From a virus, in IMG/VR virus record IMGVR_UViG_3300045988_000211, positions 1 through 5,944 of that record: a DNA stretch of 5,944 bases; one strand, given 5' to 3'. Below are positions 133-5,944 of this stretch, one piece after another (the stretch's first letter is position 1; each line of letters starts with the position of its first letter). The notes beneath the pieces were generated by a model, which was not told the DNA's origin, ran no database searches, and saw only the letters and a list, made by a program, of their open reading frames with translations. Position numbers and translations under genes: made by a program.

Positions 133-372
133 ATGAAGCATGAATATTTTGGCCTGTGGGACAGTGTAGCAAAGTGCTACGCATGGGTAGGCGAGAGCAA
201 GAACAATGCAACCTTTGCACGTATGTGCAACGTAATGGCAAAGGATGAAAAAACGTTTGTAGGACAGGCACCCGAAGACTATACCGGCTTCAAACTGGCA
301 GTGTTTGACGATGAAACCGGTGAGTTTACCAACGACAAGGAAAAAGTATGGGAGAGTAAGCCGCATGAATAA
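133..372 (+). CDS. Small conserved microvirus non-structural protein, VP5-like (79 aa)
   Basis: ATG at 133 follows GGAGAG (119..124). The gene sits immediately upstream of VP3, where gokushoviruses carry VP5. From memory, the motif PEDYxxFxLxxFDDETGE resembles a small gokushovirus protein family; this is unverified. Its stop overlaps the VP3 start by 8 nt. Confidence 0.6.
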   Translation: MKHEYFGLWDSVAKCYAWVGESKNNATFARMCNVMAKDEKTFVGQAPEDYTGFKLAVFDDETGEFTNDKEKVWESKPHE

Positions 373-757
373 ACGATACGAAGAAGGGCGAAAGCCCTTC
401 TTTTCTGAACCAGGCGAAAAATTCCGAAAACAATACGTCTGGACGAAAGACGAAAAAGGACAAGAAGTGCTGCAAGAAACTGCGCCAATCGACATCCAAC
501 AGGAAATTGAAAGCTATGCGGATGAATGTGATATCAAAAACATCGTCCGAAAAGCAAGCTTTGACCCGCAGTTTCTGAAAAGCCTGTCAGAAGGAGCACT
601 AAACGGAACAGAAGTGGACATCACCGAATTTCCGCAGAACATTCACGAGTATCATCGCATGATCGCAACAGCACAGGCAAACGCCATGAAACTAGAAGAG
701 CTGCAAAAATTAGCAGCAGAAAAGCCTAAAACAGAACCTAAAGAAAAGGAGGAATAA
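365..757 (+). CDS. Internal scaffolding protein VP3 (130 aa from ATG 365; the ORF is open from 305)
   Basis: GGGAGAG at 350..356 lies 8 nt upstream of ATG 365, whereas ATG 305 has no SD. The sequence IESYADECDIKNIVRKASFDPQFLKSL...DITEFPQNIHEYHRMI resembles the gokushovirus VP3 scaffold. The gene is directly upstream of the capsid gene. Confidence 0.75.
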   Translation: MNKRYEEGRKPFFSEPGEKFRKQYVWTKDEKGQEVLQETAPIDIQQEIESYADECDIKNIVRKASFDPQFLKSLSEGALNGTEVDITEFPQNIHEYHRMIATAQANAMKLEELQKLAAEKPKTEPKEKEE

Positions 758-759
758 AA

Positions 760-2433
760 GTGAATCGAAACAATGAACAGCACTTTAACCAGATTCCGGA
801 AATGCGAGCAAGTCGAACACGATTCAATCGTGACCAGACGATTCTCACAACGTTTGATTCTGGCAAGCTGATTCCGTTCTATGTTGACGAGGTATTGCCA
901 GGCGATACCTTCAACGTGAATACGTCAGCTATCATCCGCATGACCACGCCGAAATACCCGGTGATGGACGATGCATTTATTGACTTCTACTACTTCTATT
1001 GTCCAAACCGCATCTTATGGGACCATTTCAAACAGTTCATGGGAGAAGTAGAGGAAACACCCTGGATGCCAACAAAAACATATAAAGTACCCGAAATCAA
1101 AATACAGGGTAATGAAAAAACGAGCATCCCATATGAAGGCTCAATCTTAGACTACATGGGAGTACCAACAAAAGTAAAAGGAACCTTCAAAGTCAACGCA
1201 CTGCCTGTCAGAGCATATGTAAAAATCTGGAACGAATTTTTTAGAGACGAAAATGTTGGGAATGCAGCAGTGATTAAAACAGATGATGCAGACGTAGCAT
1301 ACGAAGATTCAATCACAGATAACATCAACTTAGTGCTGAACATAGCATATAAAGGTGGAAGATGTTTACCTGTAAACAAGTTCCATGACTACTTCACCAG
1401 CTGCCTACCCTATAGTCAACGTGGGCCAGAAATTACACTACCCATGACAGGTAACGCAATGGTGACAGGATACACAGACGAAAACTACACAGAAAAAACG
1501 AGTGTCTACGCAAGCAGCTTTTTCGATGGAAGCACAAACTCGGGCAACGTCAAAAACAAACTGTATGCAATCGCACAAAACGGAAATAACGGTGCAGCAT
1601 ACTTAAACATTGGAAGCGGAAATGGCACAGCACACACCACAGCATACCTTGGCGCAGACTTGAGCACAGTAACAGCTGCAACCATCAACGACTTGCGAAA
1701 AGCCGTAGCAGTGCAGCAGTACTACGAAGCACTTGCAAGAGGCGGCAGCCGTTACCGTGAACAGGTACAAGCACTGTGGAACGTGGTTATCAGTGATAAA
1801 ACCGTACAGGTGCCGGAATACCTGGGCGGTGGCAGATATCACGTCAATATCAACCAAATCGTGCAGACCAGCGGACAGCAGACAAACGAAGACACACCTA
1901 TCGGTGAAACTGGAGCAATGTCGGTAACGCCAATCAACGAAAGCAGCTTCACGAAATCTTTCGAGGAGCACGGTTTTATAATCGGTGTATGTTGTGTACG
2001 ACACAATCACAGTTATCAGCAAGGTTTGGAACGTTTTTGGAGCAGAATCGACAGACTTGACTACTATGTGCCACAGTTCGCAAACCTTGGCGAACAACCT
2101 GTCAAAAAGAAAGAGATCATGCTCACCGGCGCTGCAACGGATGAGGAGACATTCGGCTACCAGGAAGCATGGGCAGACTATCGCATGAAGCCTAACCGGG
2201 TATCCGGCAAAATGCGAAGCAATGCAACAGGCACGTTAGACTTCTGGCACTACGCTGACAACTACAAAGAAGTACCCACGCTGTCGCAAGAATGGATGGA
2301 AGAAAGCAAAAACGAAATTGCGCGCACGCTCATCGTGGAAGATGAGCCACAGTTCTTCGGTGCTATCCGTGTAGAAAACAAAACCACAAGACGGATGCCA
2401 CTGTACAGCGTACCGGGCTTGTACAAACTATAA
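760..2433 (+). CDS. Major capsid protein VP1 (F-like), 557 aa
   Basis: A GTG start at 760 lies 7 nt after a perfect AGGAGG (747..752). The N-terminal signature FNxIPEMxxSRxRFxRxxxxxTTFDxGxLIPFYVDEVLPGDTF is typical of Microviridae major capsid proteins. It is the largest ORF in the genome. Confidence 0.93.
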   Translation: MNRNNEQHFNQIPEMRASRTRFNRDQTILTTFDSGKLIPFYVDEVLPGDTFNVNTSAIIRMTTPKYPVMDDAFIDFYYFYCPNRILWDHFKQFMGEVEETPWMPTKTYKVPEIKIQGNEKTSIPYEGSILDYMGVPTKVKGTFKVNALPVRAYVKIWNEFFRDENVGNAAVIKTDDADVAYEDSITDNINLVLNIAYKGGRCLPVNKFHDYFTSCLPYSQRGPEITLPMTGNAMVTGYTDENYTEKTSVYASSFFDGSTNSGNVKNKLYAIAQNGNNGAAYLNIGSGNGTAHTTAYLGADLSTVTAATINDLRKAVAVQQYYEALARGGSRYREQVQALWNVVISDKTVQVPEYLGGGRYHVNINQIVQTSGQQTNEDTPIGETGAMSVTPINESSFTKSFEEHGFIIGVCCVRHNHSYQQGLERFWSRIDRLDYYVPQFANLGEQPVKKKEIMLTGAATDEETFGYQEAWADYRMKPNRVSGKMRSNATGTLDFWHYADNYKEVPTLSQEWMEESKNEIARTLIVEDEPQFFGAIRVENKTTRRMPLYSVPGLYKL

Positions 2434-2471: not shown

Positions 2472-3341
2472 ATGGGAGCATTATCAGGATTCTTAACAGC
2501 ACTAAACGTAGCGGGAAACGTGGCAAACACAATCGGAACTGTTGCGGGAGCAGCTAAAAACGTAGCCGGAGCGTTTGGCGGATGGGGACAGACAGGCAAT
2601 AGCCAAAGCAGCGGCGGCAGCACAAGCCAAGGCGGCGGGCACTCCGAAAGCGGAAGTCAAGCCGGCACAAACGTTCAACAGGTCAACGACTGGCTAAAAC
2701 AGGCATACGCGTACCAAGGGCAAGAAGCAGCCATGCAAGGTAAATACAACAGTCAAAGCATGCTTAAACAAATGGGTTACAACACCTTACAAGCAATCAT
2801 GCAAGGCGTATACAACCACATTGAAAACAGCGTAGCAATGAACTACAACAGCGCAGAAGCACTAGCTAACCGTGAATGGCAAGAACACATGTCAAGCACA
2901 GCATACCAACGAGCTGTTGAGGACATGAAAAAAGCGGGGCTTAACCCTATCTTAGCATTCTCAAACGGCGGCGCAAGCACACCGGGAGGAAGTGCGGGAA
3001 CAATCAGCGGAGCAAGCATGGGACTTGCAAGCAGCAGCGCACTAGGAGTAAGCAGAAGCGGAGGGTTTGTACCAAATGCATACTCAAGCTCAAGCTGGAG
3101 TAAAAGTGACTGGTACAACGCTGCACAAAGTTGGCAGCAGATGCTTAGTTCAACGCACATGACACCCTACGGGCTACAAAAAGCGCTTACAGAAGTCGGA
3201 AACGACACAAGCAAAGCAATCGAAGACGCAACATCGAAGACAGGAAAAGAGAAAGCTGCAGCACAAAACAGAAGCATAAAGCCACAAGACAAAAACGGAG
3301 CATACGGAGAAAAACGAAAGCCGGGTGATTACTTAAAGTGA
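2472..3341 (+). CDS. Minor capsid / DNA pilot protein VP2 (H-like), 289 aa
   Basis: The protein has a Gly/Ala/Ser-rich N-terminus. The conserved block TAYQRAVEDMKKAGLNPILAF is typical of gokushovirus VP2. It lies between VP1 and VP4, and its stop TGA overlaps the VP4 GTG start (GTGA). Confidence 0.85.
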   Translation: MGALSGFLTALNVAGNVANTIGTVAGAAKNVAGAFGGWGQTGNSQSSGGSTSQGGGHSESGSQAGTNVQQVNDWLKQAYAYQGQEAAMQGKYNSQSMLKQMGYNTLQAIMQGVYNHIENSVAMNYNSAEALANREWQEHMSSTAYQRAVEDMKKAGLNPILAFSNGGASTPGGSAGTISGASMGLASSSALGVSRSGGFVPNAYSSSSWSKSDWYNAAQSWQQMLSSTHMTPYGLQKALTEVGNDTSKAIEDATSKTGKEKAAAQNRSIKPQDKNGAYGEKRKPGDYLK

Positions 3342-4357
3342 GTTGCTACAAGCCATTAATAAGGCTGTACGACCCGAACAATAAGGACATAAGCGGGCGG
3401 GTGTATTCACTCGCCCGCTTTTCTGAAATAAGCGGGAAACAGCTAAAATATGAAGATTTGATGTACAGAAAAGATGTCATGTTGATACCATGCGGTCAAT
3501 GCATCGGATGTAGAATCAGACAAAGGGAAGACTGGGCAACACGAATAGAATTAGAAGCGCGAGACTATCCAAGAGAAGAAGTTTGGTTTATCACATTAAC
3601 TTATGACGATGACCATGTGCCGGGCATGATAGTAAACACAGGCGAAATCATGCGAAAAGTACAGTACGTCTGGAAACCGGGAGAGAAGCGCCCTGAAAGC
3701 GTCCAAACTTTGCTATATACTGACATTCAAAAGTTCTTAAAACGCCTCAGAAAGGCTTATAGGGGCAAATTACGCTATTTCGTAGCGGGAGAATACGGAG
3801 AACAGACGGCAAGACCACACTTCCATATGATTCTATATGGATGGAGACCAACAGACCTAGAGCACCTATACAAGATACAGCACAACGGATATTTCACAAG
3901 TAAATGGTTAGAAGACCTATGGGGCATGGGTCAAATACAGATAGCACAAGCAGTACCGGAAACATATAGATATGTTGCGGGATACGTTACAAAAAAAATG
4001 TACGAAATTGACGGTCAAAAGGCAAACGTATACTACGAACTAGGACAACAAAAACCTTTTGCATGTATGAGCCTAAAACCAGGCTTAGGAGATAACTATT
4101 ACAAAAAGCACAAAGCAGAAATCTGGAAACAAGGGTATATCCAATGCACAAACGGCAAACGCGCACAAATACCACGTTATTATGAAAAAATGATGGAAGC
4201 GGAAAACCCACAAAGGTTATGGAGAATTAAGCAGAACAGACAAGCAGCAGCCATAGAAGAAAACCGACTAAAGTACGAAAATGCAGACTTTGCAGAACAG
4301 TGCAAAACGAAAGAGAGAGTGATAAAGAAGCAGATGAAGAAGAGAGGGACACTTTAA
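3338..4357 (+). CDS. Replication initiator VP4 (A-like HUH rolling-circle endonuclease), 339 aa
   Basis: The N-terminus is M-SCYKPL. The protein carries a Cys cluster (CGQCIGC), motif 1 (FITLTYDD), the HUH motif (RPHFHMILYG), and a double-Tyr catalytic motif (YVAGYVTKK, compare phiX174 gpA YVAKYV). The GTG start is translationally coupled to the VP2 stop. Confidence 0.93.
   Translation: MSCYKPLIRLYDPNNKDISGRVYSLARFSEISGKQLKYEDLMYRKDVMLIPCGQCIGCRIRQREDWATRIELEARDYPREEVWFITLTYDDDHVPGMIVNTGEIMRKVQYVWKPGEKRPESVQTLLYTDIQKFLKRLRKAYRGKLRYFVAGEYGEQTARPHFHMILYGWRPTDLEHLYKIQHNGYFTSKWLEDLWGMGQIQIAQAVPETYRYVAGYVTKKMYEIDGQKANVYYELGQQKPFACMSLKPGLGDNYYKKHKAEIWKQGYIQCTNGKRAQIPRYYEKMMEAENPQRLWRIKQNRQAAAIEENRLKYENADFAEQCKTKERVIKKQMKKRGTL
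3391..3420 (+). promoter_or_regulatory. 13-bp-stem hairpin inside the 5' part of the Rep coding region
   Basis: AAGCGGGCGGGTG (3391..3403) pairs with CACTCGCCCGCTT (3408..3420), with 12 Watson-Crick pairs plus one G-T and a TATT loop. Two further T follow, giving TTTT at 3419..3422. Confidence 0.5.
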
Positions 4358-4375: not shown

Positions 4376-4409
4376 TAGCCCAGTACCTATCAAGTAAGGT
4401 ACTGGGCTA
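4376..4409 (+). terminator. Perfect 13-bp-stem hairpin 19 nt downstream of the Rep stop (terminator-like or origin-related)
   Basis: TAGCCCAGTACCT (4376..4388) pairs with AGGTACTGGGCTA (4397..4409) around the 8-nt loop ATCAAGTA. The downstream sequence TTGTCATTT is only moderately T-rich. Confidence 0.4.
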
Positions 4410-4450: not shown

Positions 4451-4468
4451 CAAATAGCTATCTCTTAT

Positions 4469-4512
4469 CGCGCGTGCGCACGCGCGCGAAGCGCGCACGC
4501 GCGCACGCGCGG
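4469..4512. repeat. Alternating CG / palindromic GC-rich tract
   Basis: A perfect 18-nt palindrome CGCGCGTGCGCACGCGCG lies at 4469..4486. GCGCACGC recurs at 4476, 4493 and 4501. The tract is almost pure alternating purine-pyrimidine, in an otherwise A-rich genome. Confidence 0.9.
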
Positions 4513-4525
4513 CTCTTCAGCGCTA

Positions 4526-4555
4526 TTGTTCGCAAGCTCACAAGCGCTGTATAAT
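4526..4555 (+). promoter_or_regulatory. Candidate sigma70-type promoter (TTGTTC-N18-TATAAT)
   Basis: A perfect -10 TATAAT at 4550..4555 is immediately preceded by TG. The -35 TTGTTC at 4526..4531 is weak (3/6) and the spacer is 18 nt. Confidence 0.3.
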
Positions 4556-4567
4556 ATATAACTTGTT

Positions 4568-4583
4568 GTAGTAGTAGTAGTAG
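4568..4583. repeat. (GTA)5 / (TAG)5 trinucleotide microsatellite
   Basis: The sequence is gtagtagtagtagtag, preceded by ttgttg. Confidence 0.9.
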
Positions 4584-4649
4584 AGACTGTGGAAAAGTTG
4601 ATAAGTGCTAAAATTTAACGTTAAGACGTAAATAAAAGGCAAAAAACAA

Positions 4650-4762
4650 TGTTGAAAGATTTGTTGAAAACTTGTTGAAATGTTGAAAGTTCGTCAAAAT
4701 GACGAAAACCTTTGTGCAACATTTTGTTGAAAACCTGTTGAAAGTGTTGAAAGTGTTGAAAA
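4650..4762 (+). repeat. Iteron array: eight direct TGTTGAAA copies in two clusters of four
   Basis: Copies start at 4650, 4662, 4673 and 4681, then at 4725, 4736, 4745 and 4754. The last three are head-to-tail 9-mers (TGTTGAAAG, TGTTGAAAG, TGTTGAAAA). All copies share one orientation. Confidence 0.9.
4690..4706. promoter_or_regulatory. 7-3-7 perfect inverted repeat TTCGTCA-AAA-TGACGAA at the centre of the iteron array (operator-like or hairpin)
   Basis: TTCGTCA (4690..4696) is the reverse complement of TGACGAA (4700..4706). Confidence 0.6.
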
Positions 4763-4895
4763 CGCGCACAGCGCTAAAAAGGAATGGATTCAGCCGAATT
4801 CCGCTGCGCTCCATACGGCAAGGCGCTAAAGCGCCGTTCAAAACAAAGGAGCAAAACTGAGTTACTGATATATCAATTAAAGTTTCAAAAAAGGC

Positions 4896-4924
4896 TTGAC
4901 TTTTTATCAAAAATATGATAGAAT
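4896..4924 (+). promoter_or_regulatory. Sigma70-type promoter with extended -10 (TTGACT-N17-TGaTAGAAT)
   Basis: The -35 TTGACT is at 4896..4901, the spacer is 17 nt, TG is at 4916..4917, and the -10 TAGAAT is at 4919..4924. An A-rich tract lies upstream. The SD and ATG of the next ORF follow within ~30 nt. Confidence 0.65.
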
Positions 4925-4951
4925 ATAATCACAGAAAGGAAGGTGCTCAAA

Positions 4952-5134
4952 ATGATGCACAAATACGAGTTAAGAAAATGGAACAATGACGACACGATGA
5001 CCACGGTATTAAAAATCAATGATGCACCCAAAAACGCAAAAAAGAGGGCAAGAGAATACGCAAACGAACACAAGGGAATCTATTCCTTGTGCAGAGTCGA
5101 AGAAGTAAAAATATACTCCACTGAAAAAGAATAA
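4952..5134 (+). CDS. Hypothetical 60-aa protein (accessory, no recognisable family)
   Basis: ATG 4952 lies 8 nt after AGGAAGG (4937..4943), whereas the ORF-track start at 4943 is a GTG inside the SD. The ORF is bracketed by a promoter upstream and an intrinsic terminator downstream. No hydrophobic segment is present. Confidence 0.6.
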   Translation: MMHKYELRKWNNDDTMTTVLKINDAPKNAKKRAREYANEHKGIYSLCRVEEVKIYSTEKE

Positions 5135-5139
5135 AAAGC

Positions 5140-5173
5140 AAACTCCCGGTTGACAGCCGGGAGTTTTTGTTTT
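5140..5173 (+). terminator. Rho-independent terminator
   Basis: The 10-bp stem AAACTCCCGG (5140..5149) pairs with CCGGGAGTTT (5157..5166) around the 7-nt loop TTGACAG. A T-rich tail TTGTTTT follows through 5173. It starts 6 nt after the stop of the 60-aa ORF. Confidence 0.75.
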
Positions 5174-5178
5174 ATAAT
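5150..5178 (+). promoter_or_regulatory. Perfect consensus sigma70 promoter TTGACA-N17-TATAAT nested in the terminator
   Basis: TTGACA at 5150..5155 lies in the terminator loop. The spacer 5156..5172 is exactly 17 nt, and TATAAT is at 5173..5178. The SD AAAGGGGGG and ATG 5200 of the peptidase gene lie just downstream. Confidence 0.65.
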
Positions 5179-5199
5179 AAAGACAAAGGGGGGCTAAAC

Positions 5200-5592
5200 A
5201 TGATTAAAAGCTATATCATGGACACAGATGGAAACGTAAAGCTGGCAAGACACTTCAAAGTAAAAGAATTTGCTTGCAAAGACGGCAGCCAAGTAGTATT
5301 CATAGATGACTACCTATACACCATTCTAGATATCTTACGACATAAGCTAGGAAAGCCGGTGATCATCACCAGCGGATACAGAACACCAGAGTGGAACAAA
5401 AAATGCAACGGAGCAAAATACAGCTACCACATGCGCGGTATGGCAGCAGATATCCGAGTCAATGGCATGAGCGCAAAAGAGCTTGCCAACAAACTGAATG
5501 AAATCGTCCCGGATGAATGCGGCATTATCGTATACAACAATTGGGTGCACTTTGATGTGCGACCCGGAAAAAAATACAGAAAGGGGATGTAA
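5200..5592 (+). CDS. Peptidase M15 family (M15A / Peptidase_M15_3-like) zinc cell-wall hydrolase, 130 aa
   Basis: The motif series FxVKEFACKDG ... ITSGYRTPEWNxxxxGAxxSYHMRGMAADI ... WVHFDVR matches the H/D/H zinc-ligand pattern of D-Ala-D-Ala carboxypeptidase-fold phage endolysins. ATG 5200 lies 5 nt after AAAGGGGGG (5186..5194). The ORF-track start at 5167 is a TTG inside the terminator tail. Confidence 0.85.
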   Translation: MIKSYIMDTDGNVKLARHFKVKEFACKDGSQVVFIDDYLYTILDILRHKLGKPVIITSGYRTPEWNKKCNGAKYSYHMRGMAADIRVNGMSAKELANKLNEIVPDECGIIVYNNWVHFDVRPGKKYRKGM

Positions 5593-5593
5593 A

Positions 5594-5716
5594 ATGGCAC
5601 TGATTTCAATTAAGGACGTCAAGCAAGCAATCCGCATTATGATGCAGATTCTCGAAAAGCTTGACGAAATCTATCATGCGCTGCACGATAGCATCAACGA
5701 AGACAAAAAGGAGTAA
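5594..5716 (+). CDS. Hypothetical 40-aa protein (predicted helical, acidic C-terminus)
   Basis: ATG 5594 lies 7 nt after AAGGGGA and 1 nt after the peptidase stop. The upstream part of the ORF-track frame (5498..) overlaps the peptidase gene and has no SD. Confidence 0.45.
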   Translation: MALISIKDVKQAIRIMMQILEKLDEIYHALHDSINEDKKE

Positions 5717-5722
5717 ACCGTA

Positions 5723-5830
5723 ATGCCCAAAACATGGAATGCACGAGACCAGACCGAAGAAGCAAATTGGAACCATGGCCGAAACAAAAAAAAGAAAAGA
5801 AAGGTACACAACAATGGCACGACATCGTAA
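5723..5830 (+). CDS. Possible 35-aa ORF (MPKTWNARDQTEEANWNHGRNKKKKRKVHNNGTTS)
   Basis: ATG 5723 lies 9 nt after the best SD in the region (AAGGAG 5708..5713). All three + frames are open here, so coding status is uncertain. Confidence 0.3.
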   Translation: MPKTWNARDQTEEANWNHGRNKKKKRKVHNNGTTS

Positions 5831-5936
5831 AGCAATGAAAGGCGCAAAAGACCGCCGTATGTTTAACGTAACCGCACGAAAAACCAAAAGCATAAACCTC
5901 AGCCAGAAGCCTATGCGCGGTGGCATCCGGCTGTAA
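5814..5936 (+). CDS. Small basic DNA-binding / packaging protein (phiX174 J-like, gokushovirus ORF8-like), 40 aa
   Basis: The product is MARHRKAMKGAKDRRMFNVTARKTKSINLSQKPMRGGIRL, with 13 of 40 residues K/R. The C-terminal PMRGGIRL is a recurrent ending of gokushovirus ORF8-type proteins (from memory). GAAAGG lies 9 nt upstream of ATG 5814. The frame is open back to ATG 5739, but that start has no SD. Confidence 0.75.
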   Translation: MARHRKAMKGAKDRRMFNVTARKTKSINLSQKPMRGGIRL

Positions 5937-5944
5937 AAAAAAAG
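5826..5944. repeat. Terminal redundancy (copy 2), identical to 1..119
   Basis: Same as copy 1. The overlap runs exactly to the last base of the window. Confidence 0.95.

Follow-up and report, generated by a model that had tools for sequence, protein, structure and literature searches.

The DNA analysed here is the 5,944-nucleotide (nt) IMG/VR record IMGVR_UViG_3300045988_000211, referred to over its whole length as the window, and the gene of interest is an open reading frame (ORF) at 5200-5592 on the + strand (393 nt, 130 amino acids (aa) plus a stop codon) which encodes a predicted M15-type peptidoglycan peptidase and is called M15 below. The window corresponds to a complete circular gokushovirus genome of 5825 unique nt, bases 1-119 recurring at 5826-5944 as an assembly repeat. 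Gokushovirinae genomes are circles of 4.5-6 kb in which an F-type capsid protein (VP1) and a scaffold of the Chlamydia-phage type (VP3) are encoded on one strand. VP1, VP2, VP3, VP4 and VP5 were all found on a single strand of the circular window, as in Gokushovirinae (Microviridae), with Pfam matches to Phage_F (459 bits), Chlamy_scaf, REP_ORF2-G2P and Phage_ORF5 and a PHROG match for the pilot protein, and all recognisable genes are on the + strand (Table 1). The closest GenBank genomes, with approximately 85% nucleotide identity to the window, are those of the human-gut Gokushovirinae KT264791 and KX513868.

Profile searches with M15 returned Pfam Peptidase_M15_3 (PF08291) with an E-value of 1.7e-23 and 83.2 bits (cut-off 23.2) over profile positions 2-108 of 108, as well as PHROG 894 'endolysin' (8e-43). 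The motifs SGYR (58-61), SYH (75-77), AAD (82-84) and VHFD (116-119) were all recovered. The SxHxxGxAxD motif, S75-Y-H77-M-R-G80-M-A82-A-D84 in M15, has invariant residues and holds two predicted zinc ligands, and the third, H117, lies within the (W/F)xH motif W115-V-H117-F-D119, the predicted ligands being H77, D84 and H117. D119 is the acidic residue expected near the third ligand, and R61 the arginine predicted to contact the substrate carboxylate. These three ligands together with D119, R61 and S75 did not vary across the 26- and 60-sequence alignments of homologues (41-70% identity). The AlphaFold2 model, built with the 60-sequence alignment, displays the LAS (Hedgehog/DD-peptidase) fold with a mean predicted local distance difference test (pLDDT) score of 94, and the entire protein is occupied by the catalytic domain. 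Its best matches among solved structures (Foldseek) were 1lbu followed by VanXYc, VanY, the Hedgehog N-domain, Ply500, LysB4 and ChiX, while in BFVD template modelling (TM) scores of 0.93-0.95 were obtained with gut Siphoviridae and Myoviridae peptidases. Weaker similarity was seen with Pfam DUF882 (33.8 bits, cut-off 27) and with NCBIfam NF053624 (MepK/YcbK L,D-endopeptidase, 47.3 bits); the latter score is far under the equivalog cut-off of 185, and M15 was consequently rejected as a MepK orthologue and regarded as related only, without a twin-arginine (Tat) or general secretory (Sec) signal. A preliminary description of the window had proposed an M15-type zinc hydrolase with the full SGYR/SxH/AAD/VHxD signature, which the profile search, the predicted structure with its superposition and the conservation of the H/D/H ligands all bear out. 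On these sequence and model grounds, M15 is a soluble single-domain zinc-dependent M15A (LAS-fold) peptidoglycan peptidase, hydrolysis itself being predicted.

Roux et al. 2012 reported M15_3 peptidases from five gokushoviruses of the human gut and from six alpaviruses; the gokushovirus copies were traced to Faecalibacterium-like homologues, homologues were noted to lie in holin-endolysin cassettes, and a lysis (endolysin) role was proposed (PMC3394797). Kirchberger et al. 2022 treated the peptidases as lysis-associated accessory genes and documented one exchange between microvirus families (PMC9239249). The record of KX513868 (Human gut gokushovirus SH-CHD5) annotates the gene as 'peptidase M15', and cultured microviruses with M15 genes include Occultatumvirinae roseophages, vB_RpoMi-Mini and phiHBP1. 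That gut gokushoviruses carry the gene has been known since 2012, and the window is one further member of a very abundant clade. Among 72 near-complete genomes chosen by VP1 similarity alone (73-84% identity), the gene was present at the same locus in all 72, from many samples. A large protein collection contains 1384 clusters (90% identity) that match M15 at E ≤ 1e-5, and the best 120 of these are all at least 83% identical and are nearly all found on contigs of microvirus size or smaller (~6 kb or less); 262 close relatives were counted in IMG/VR, and independent GenBank genomes from China and France also carry the gene. M15 is a fixed core gene of this human- and animal-gut gokushovirus clade and not a sporadic passenger, so that the earlier view of the gene as probably rare, which is also at odds with its publication in 2012 and its annotation in KX513868, had to be abandoned. 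In the KT264791.1 record (L002), an intact M15 gene (4506-4892, 90% protein identity) and the small gene ORF40 that follows it are both unannotated.

The median ratio of non-synonymous to synonymous substitution rates (dN/dS) of M15 is 0.16, no stop codon interrupts any of 42 unique alleles and the catalytic residues are retained in 43 of 44; therefore, M15 is functional and under purifying selection. These values bear directly on the possibility that M15 is a decaying passenger or an assembly artefact without viral function. Chimeric contigs do exist among the relatives: two longer ones, L052 (IMGVR_UViG_3300045988_007630) and L200 (…_004182), each combine parts of two different microviruses, which in L200 have conserved non-coding blocks in common, and in L192 (…_086966) a complete microvirus is joined to portal- and minor-head-like genes and a terminase fragment of a tailed phage on the opposite strand, as named from reading of the translations. 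All three were taken as assembly chimeras and not as prophages. Against such an origin for M15 itself, the ORF is intact with its catalytic residues kept, its dN/dS is low and it recurs in every VP1-chosen genome and in independent GenBank genomes, by which the possibility is effectively refuted.

The N-terminus of M15, MIKSYIMDTDGNVKLARH, has no hydrophobic core and, by hydropathy, neither a signal peptide nor a signal-arrest-release (SAR) segment, and in the model its residues 2-6 make up one strand of the catalytic domain (pLDDT 96). Membrane-spanning segments were searched with a 19-residue Kyte-Doolittle window and a threshold of 1.6 in + strand ORFs of at least 25 aa. No holin-like ORF of this class was found in the window, where the maximum of 1.12 is reached by the glycine-rich N-terminus of VP2, and the ORFs flanking M15 at 4952-5134 and 5594-5716 are both hydrophilic (grand average of hydropathy -1.19 and -0.25 respectively). 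A + strand ORF reaching 1.6 was present in 1 of the 72 clade genomes, unconserved and 29 aa long. A stop-to-stop scan of the three + frames in the window and 82 M15-selected relatives likewise gave no conserved hydrophobic frame, the window remaining below 1.51, the lowest among 25 listed values, and no overprinted ORF of the phiX174 E type with an N-terminal membrane-spanning helix was found in the window. With nothing conserved in either scan, a hidden coding-strand holin was rejected. The preliminary description had seen in the window neither an N-terminal signal or anchor on M15, nor a holin or spanin, nor a transmembrane segment in the flanking 60-aa and 40-aa ORFs; each of these absences was confirmed, and at the scale of the clade the absence of a visible holin, spanin or signal is robust within the limits of a hydropathy scan.

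Two further sequences with a hydrophobic character came up in the search for a holin. The antisense ORF 4885-5073(-), 62 aa long, has a holin-like look with two membrane-spanning segments, but was rejected, since the frame stays open in no more than 3 of 21 relatives and about nine have mid-ORF stops; hydrophobic antisense ORFs are the expected by-products of an A-rich coding strand. The other is an alternate-frame segment, LLYGYLFLLCSVPSAVGTL, which is followed by an arginine-rich tail and sits within VP1 of a divergent M15-bearing lineage (L013 347-598, L067 5377-5655, L021 3202-3357 and ~10 other loci of that lineage). It is moderately hydrophobic, starts straight after a stop without an obvious start codon, is confined to VP1 of that lineage and is absent from the window. 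The VP2 N-terminus (2472-2590), glycine/alanine-rich and glycine-zipper-like (GALSGFLTALNVAGNVANTIGTVAGAAKNVAGAFGG), is the most hydrophobic conserved coding-strand stretch across the clade, with Kyte-Doolittle values of 1.1-1.5, and no other candidate for a membrane-active element encoded by the virus is visible.

Outside the microviruses, M15 is most closely related, with no more than 54% identity, to lysins of Clostridia and of their tailed phages. When 185,579 species genomes were scanned with a 6-sequence M15 alignment, the best 80 homologues had at most 50% identity and came mostly from Clostridia assemblies, with Acutalibacteraceae, Oscillospiraceae including Faecalibacterium, and Lachnospiraceae among their families. 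None of the 80 loci contained microvirus genes, so that no host could be assigned from a prophage, and no similarity to the non-coding blocks of the window that would point to donor DNA was found in the bacterial loci. Small same-strand ORFs with a membrane-spanning segment were located within 1.5 kb in 52 of 54 bacterial loci, a count of raw ORFs of which some occur by chance. Among isolated phages, Faecalibacterium phage FP_Toutatis comes closest; its endolysin is 45% identical to M15 and is immediately followed by a 131-aa ORF with two membrane-spanning segments. On a ~65-kb phage contig, a 52%-identical homologue lies between ORFs of 105 and 80 aa with one membrane-spanning segment each and adjoins an Amidase_2 gene. 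Homologues further removed from M15 occur as fusions with GH25, SH3_3, PG_binding_1 or NAGPA domains, the arrangement found in lysins of Gram-positive hosts. In the window, VP5, VP1, ORF63, M15 and ORF40 are each preceded by a strong Shine-Dalgarno sequence, and strong Shine-Dalgarno usage is a better fit to Bacillota or Proteobacteria than to Bacteroidota. Taken from homologues of 54% identity at most, a Clostridia host is the best guess. The probable donor of M15 is a tailed phage of Clostridia (Oscillospiraceae, Acutalibacteraceae, Lachnospiraceae), from whose lysis cassette the gene would have been taken up with the holin left behind, and M15 would subsequently have been swapped as a small module among distant gokushoviruses.

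The combination of no export signal with a wall-directed fold could also be explained if M15 acted as a cytoplasmic 'enzymatic amurin', hydrolysing precursors such as D-Ala-D-Ala, UDP-MurNAc-pentapeptide or the lipid II stem peptide, so that cross-linking is starved and growing cells lyse without a holin, following the precursor logic of phiX174 E, Qbeta A2 and LysM. Such an activity would account for the lack of holin and signal in 71 of 72 genomes, the best solved-structure relatives of M15 are D-Ala-D-Ala carboxypeptidases, among which VanXYc and VanY act on precursors, and the characterised lysis proteins of small phages all target precursor synthesis. The nearest relatives by sequence, on the other hand, are holin-associated endolysins and extracellular modular-lysin domains acting on the mature wall, and the weak similarity to MepK is to a cross-link endopeptidase whose substrate is absent from the cytoplasm. 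Consequently, precursor hydrolysis as the function of M15 is considered very unlikely.

Among genomes of the one VP1 clade, the alleles of M15 are between 44% and 96% identical to the window copy. Conversely, in divergent genomes (L007, L011-L013, L020-L023 and others) M15 retains 82-95% amino-acid identity despite VP1 at ~42% and VP4 at ~37%, and the nucleotide similarity of these genomes to the window is almost wholly contained in five regions, namely the M15 gene, the ORF40 region, a 100-nt block (4762-4865), the iteron block (4554-4752, inverted) and the VP1/VP2 junction. Because clade alleles fall to 44% while genomes with a distant VP1 keep M15 at 82-95%, M15 behaves, from these sequence comparisons, like a module: distant gokushoviruses exchange it by recombination, and now and then a different allele takes its place. 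The comparisons point to exchange and allele replacement being more frequent than the single inter-family case of Kirchberger et al. 2022.

This exchange is also relevant to a possible role of M15 as a virion-associated entry enzyme, a few copies of which on the particle would open the peptidoglycan locally during genome delivery. M15A domains do occur in large tail or baseplate proteins among the structural matches (Gp5 OB-fold fusions, a 1191-aa 'cell wall hydrolase'), M15 is probably co-transcribed with the structural genes, the unrelated hydrolase Gp7 of microvirus Ebor is found in virions at trace amounts (PMC11980548), and local wall opening would be useful to a T=1 particle that lacks a tail and meets a thick wall. 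The closest homologues are instead free-standing lysis-cassette endolysins of ~130 aa or catalytic domains of modular lysins, M15 has no capsid- or pilot-binding extension, and the swapping of alleles down to 44% identity within one capsid clade argues against a specific fit to the capsid. An entry function is thus judged quite unlikely.

Upstream of M15, the window contains its only perfect sigma-70/sigma-A-type promoter, and a second good + strand site (10/12) precedes ORF63 (Table 1); these two are the only good promoter-like sites on that strand, and promoter-like sites overall are not enriched in the window (4 found for 8.7 expected). Transcription from the perfect site would start near 5185. 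Terminator-like sites on the + strand were found only after VP1 (2444-2463), VP4 (4376-4409) and ORF63 (5140-5166). Since the next such site downstream of M15 is the one after VP1, the 5150-5178 promoter, as read from consensus scans, is probably the main promoter and drives M15-ORF40-ORF8-VP5-VP3-VP1 with M15 first. M15 and ORF40 are probably coupled in translation, because the ORF40 ATG lies 1 nt past the M15 stop and its Shine-Dalgarno sequence is inside the 3' end of M15. The hairpin that closes the ORF63 unit comprises 12 pairs and a 3-nt loop when counted on the + strand (10 pairs and a 7-nt loop on the - strand), and the -35 hexamer of the M15 promoter lies within and beside its loop, an arrangement also seen in L014, L015 and L018. 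In 34 of 85 relatives, the 120 nt before M15 contain a promoter site that matches at 10/12 or better, perfectly so in 9, and in many others M15 comes directly after an ORF63-like gene. The perfect consensus promoter that the preliminary description had ascribed to M15 is accordingly real as a 12/12 match, but it is probably not for M15 alone, as it would serve the whole M15-to-VP1 unit and has a counterpart in only those 34 relatives.

Table 1. Genes and expression signals of the window, in order of position.
Feature	Position	Strand	Remarks
VP5	133-372	+	
VP3	305-757	+	
VP1	760-2433	+	
VP2	2472-3341	+	pilot
VP4	3338-4357	+	Rep
Promoter-like site	4896-4924	+	TTGACT-17-TAGAAT with TG extension, 10/12; upstream of ORF63
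ORF63 (ORF63/60)	4952-5134	+	small basic hydrophilic protein, 60 aa, isoelectric point (pI) 9.1
Intrinsic-terminator-like hairpin	5140-5175	+	stem AAACTCCCGG/CCGGGAGTTT, then T-run; closes ORF63 unit
Promoter	5150-5178	+	TTGACA-17-TATAAT, sigma-70/sigma-A type, 12/12; only perfect site in window
Shine-Dalgarno sequence	5187-5193	+	AGGGGGG, 6 nt before M15 ATG; read from sequence
M15 gene	5200-5592	+	predicted M15A (Peptidase_M15_3) zinc peptidoglycan peptidase, 130 aa, 15.0 kDa, pI 9.4
ORF40	5594-5716	+	40 aa, hydrophilic, helix-like
ORF8-like gene	5739-5936	+	basic protein

ORF40 was recovered in 80 of 82 M15-selected loci and in 71 of the 72 VP1-chosen genomes and, with a dN/dS of 0.08, is among the most constrained genes measured (0.06 for VP4). 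It displays a heptad-like hydrophobic pattern, has no membrane-spanning segment and has no match in Pfam, PHROG or NCBIfam. The M15-less relative KT264799 also retains ORF40, for which reason the latter was rejected as a dedicated partner of M15, and the region of this relative from VP4 to ORF40 contains no + strand ORF bearing a membrane-spanning segment. Hardly any of the GenBank records in which ORF40 occurs annotate it. ORF63 is variable, being present in 19 of 82 loci with a dN/dS of 0.25, and has its own promoter-like site and terminator.

The ~100-nt non-coding block at 4762-4865, upstream of M15, was found in 80 of 86 M15-bearing relatives, always in + orientation, and is absent from M15-less KT264799. 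It is 88-97% identical between genomes whose VP1 proteins are ~42% identical, and it seems to travel with the M15 module. The block was rejected as coding sequence or structured RNA, as it shows no codon periodicity, a fold z of -0.04 and no Rfam match above noise. Next to it, window positions 4650-4761 contain eight exact + strand copies of TGTTGAAA, which occur nowhere else in the genome, for 0.42 expected. The ~200-nt iteron block to which they belong (4554-4761) was recovered from 83 of 86 related genomes, 49 of which have it in + orientation and 34 inverted, has been moved upstream of VP4 in some divergent genomes and was found only in gut gokushoviruses. Its occurrence in either orientation suggests a function on the double-stranded replicative form, for instance as a set of sites bound by protein. 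Just past VP4 lie a perfect 13-bp hairpin (4376-4409), a CG-rich tract of ~48 nt (4464-4512), alternating and self-complementary (CGCGCGTGCGCACGCGCGCG...), and a (GTA)5 run (4568-4582). The hairpin and the CG-rich tract are conserved only in the sub-lineage of the window (47 and 42 of 86 loci, respectively), and these features may be terminator or origin elements.

An endolysin role for microvirus peptidases was proposed by both Roux 2012 (PMC3394797) and Kirchberger 2022 (PMC9239249), and the interpretation favoured here, to which slightly better than even chances are given, is that M15 is a lysis endolysin that reaches the wall by a route other than a holin. As the first gene from the strongest promoter of the replicative form, M15 would be co-transcribed with ORF40, ORF8, VP5, VP3 and VP1, and the enzyme would accumulate in the cytoplasm alongside the capsid proteins. 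An ancestral gokushovirus lysis function, which the M15-less relatives would need as well, would then breach the membrane, after which M15 could dismantle the sacculus. The route to the wall would be non-canonical, given that neither a holin nor a signal peptide or SAR domain is encoded. To our knowledge, other gokushoviruses lyse their hosts without a known lysis gene.

Alternatively, M15 could be sufficient on its own or with help from the host, no other viral lysis function being needed. Its basic surface and C-terminal tail (pI 9.4, ...RPGKKYRKGM) would allow it to pass through or destabilise the membrane, or else it would be released by a holin-like or secretion system of the host. A basic protein fixed in 72/72 genomes behind the strongest promoter, in a clade with no viral holin, is consistent with this possibility, and endolysins that are independent of holins and lack classical signals are documented in the literature. 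The tail is, on the contrary, short, modelled with low confidence and devoid of an amphipathic helix, and the tailed-phage homologues retain adjacent holin-like genes, which implies that the domain is not intrinsically self-exporting. Moreover, M15-less KT264799 and gokushoviruses in general lyse by other means. Self-sufficient or host-assisted lysis by M15 is for these reasons held to be unlikely. A broader possibility, improbable to much the same degree as an entry function, is that of a new type of holin-free lysis device, in which either M15 acts in the cytoplasm on precursors or ORF40 or the VP2 N-terminus, neither of them transmembrane, replaces the holin.

Several points weigh against a lysis endolysin that follows an ancestral membrane breach. 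The membrane-breaching partner is hypothetical and the access step conjectural, and the literature searched holds no biochemical or genetic data on the window M15 or on any microviral M15A. The operon structure comes from consensus scans only, and the Clostridia host only from homologues of no more than 54% identity, while Gram-positive hosts of microviruses are considered rare and mostly unproven (PMC9239249). Concerning the missing holin, ORFs shorter than 25 aa were covered by the frame scan of the 83 M15-selected genomes and not by the ORF scan of the 72, and a Kyte-Doolittle scan may miss amphipathic or short membrane-active peptides.

Compared with the gut gokushovirus M15_3 genes of Roux 2012 (e.g. 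SH-CHD5, KX513868), M15 belongs to the same virus group, habitat and Pfam family. In the KX513868 type the gene likewise lies between VP4 and the VP5/VP3/VP1 block, both have an affinity to Faecalibacterium/Clostridiales and nothing essential differs. What is added here is the fixation of M15 in the clade, the clade-wide absence of a membrane-spanning ORF, the constrained ORF40 that follows M15 and a module common to lineages with VP1 at ~42%. Single-domain M15A endolysins of 116-137 aa, namely LysPM1 of Proteus phage Homer, the peptidase M15A of Burkholderia phage ST79 and the FP_Toutatis endolysin, share with M15 the SxHxxGxAxD and (W/F)xH motifs as well as the zinc triad, are ~40-45% identical to it and likewise have 1lbu as their nearest solved structure. 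In LysPM1, a verified M15A endolysin, H104, D106 and R47 correspond to H117, D119 and R61 of M15 (PMC13461873). These tailed-phage enzymes, as seen for ST79 and FP_Toutatis, are encoded in a cassette with a holin and, for Gram-negative hosts, with spanins as well, whereas the microvirus has none of these. The zinc motif of M15 also aligns with SRHMYGHAAD of 1lbu, the zinc D-Ala-D-Ala carboxypeptidase of Streptomyces albus G and MEROPS M15A type enzyme, at 24% identity and a TM score of 0.55, a distance over which substrate specificity is not transferable; 1lbu differs further in being secreted, 213 aa long and equipped with an additional N-terminal peptidoglycan-binding-like domain.

Among small phages, those relying on phiX174 E and the amurins resemble the window phage in lysing with minimal coding capacity and no holin-endolysin pair. 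E is, on the other hand, an overprinted non-enzymatic membrane protein that inhibits MraY, whereas M15 would be a soluble hydrolase. The idea, put forward in the preliminary description, that characterised Microviridae have no muralytic enzyme is outdated, given the cultured microviruses with M15 genes and Ebor, whose Gp7 breaks down peptidoglycan in vitro and was the first accessory wall hydrolase of a microvirus shown biochemically to do so (PMC11980548). Gp7 probably belongs to another enzyme family, its HHpred match 6SSC not being matched by the M15 profile, and Ebor encodes a predicted 45-aa membrane protein, Gp1, for which the window genome has no equivalent (PMC11980548).

Taken together, the clade is an example of an endolysin-type enzyme that has become fixed although the 5.8-kb genome encodes no holin, signal peptide or other membrane protein, and the remaining interest lies in the problem of access, sharpened by the clade-wide absence of membrane-protein genes. 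As a compact catalytic domain of 15 kDa that would be specific for Clostridia-type walls, M15 could in addition serve as an enzybiotic scaffold. Gokushoviruses are the dominant microviruses of the human gut. The route by which M15 reaches the wall, or its action on precursors, would reveal how progeny are released and whether Clostridia are infected, which, if true, would represent a significant extension of the host range of microviruses.

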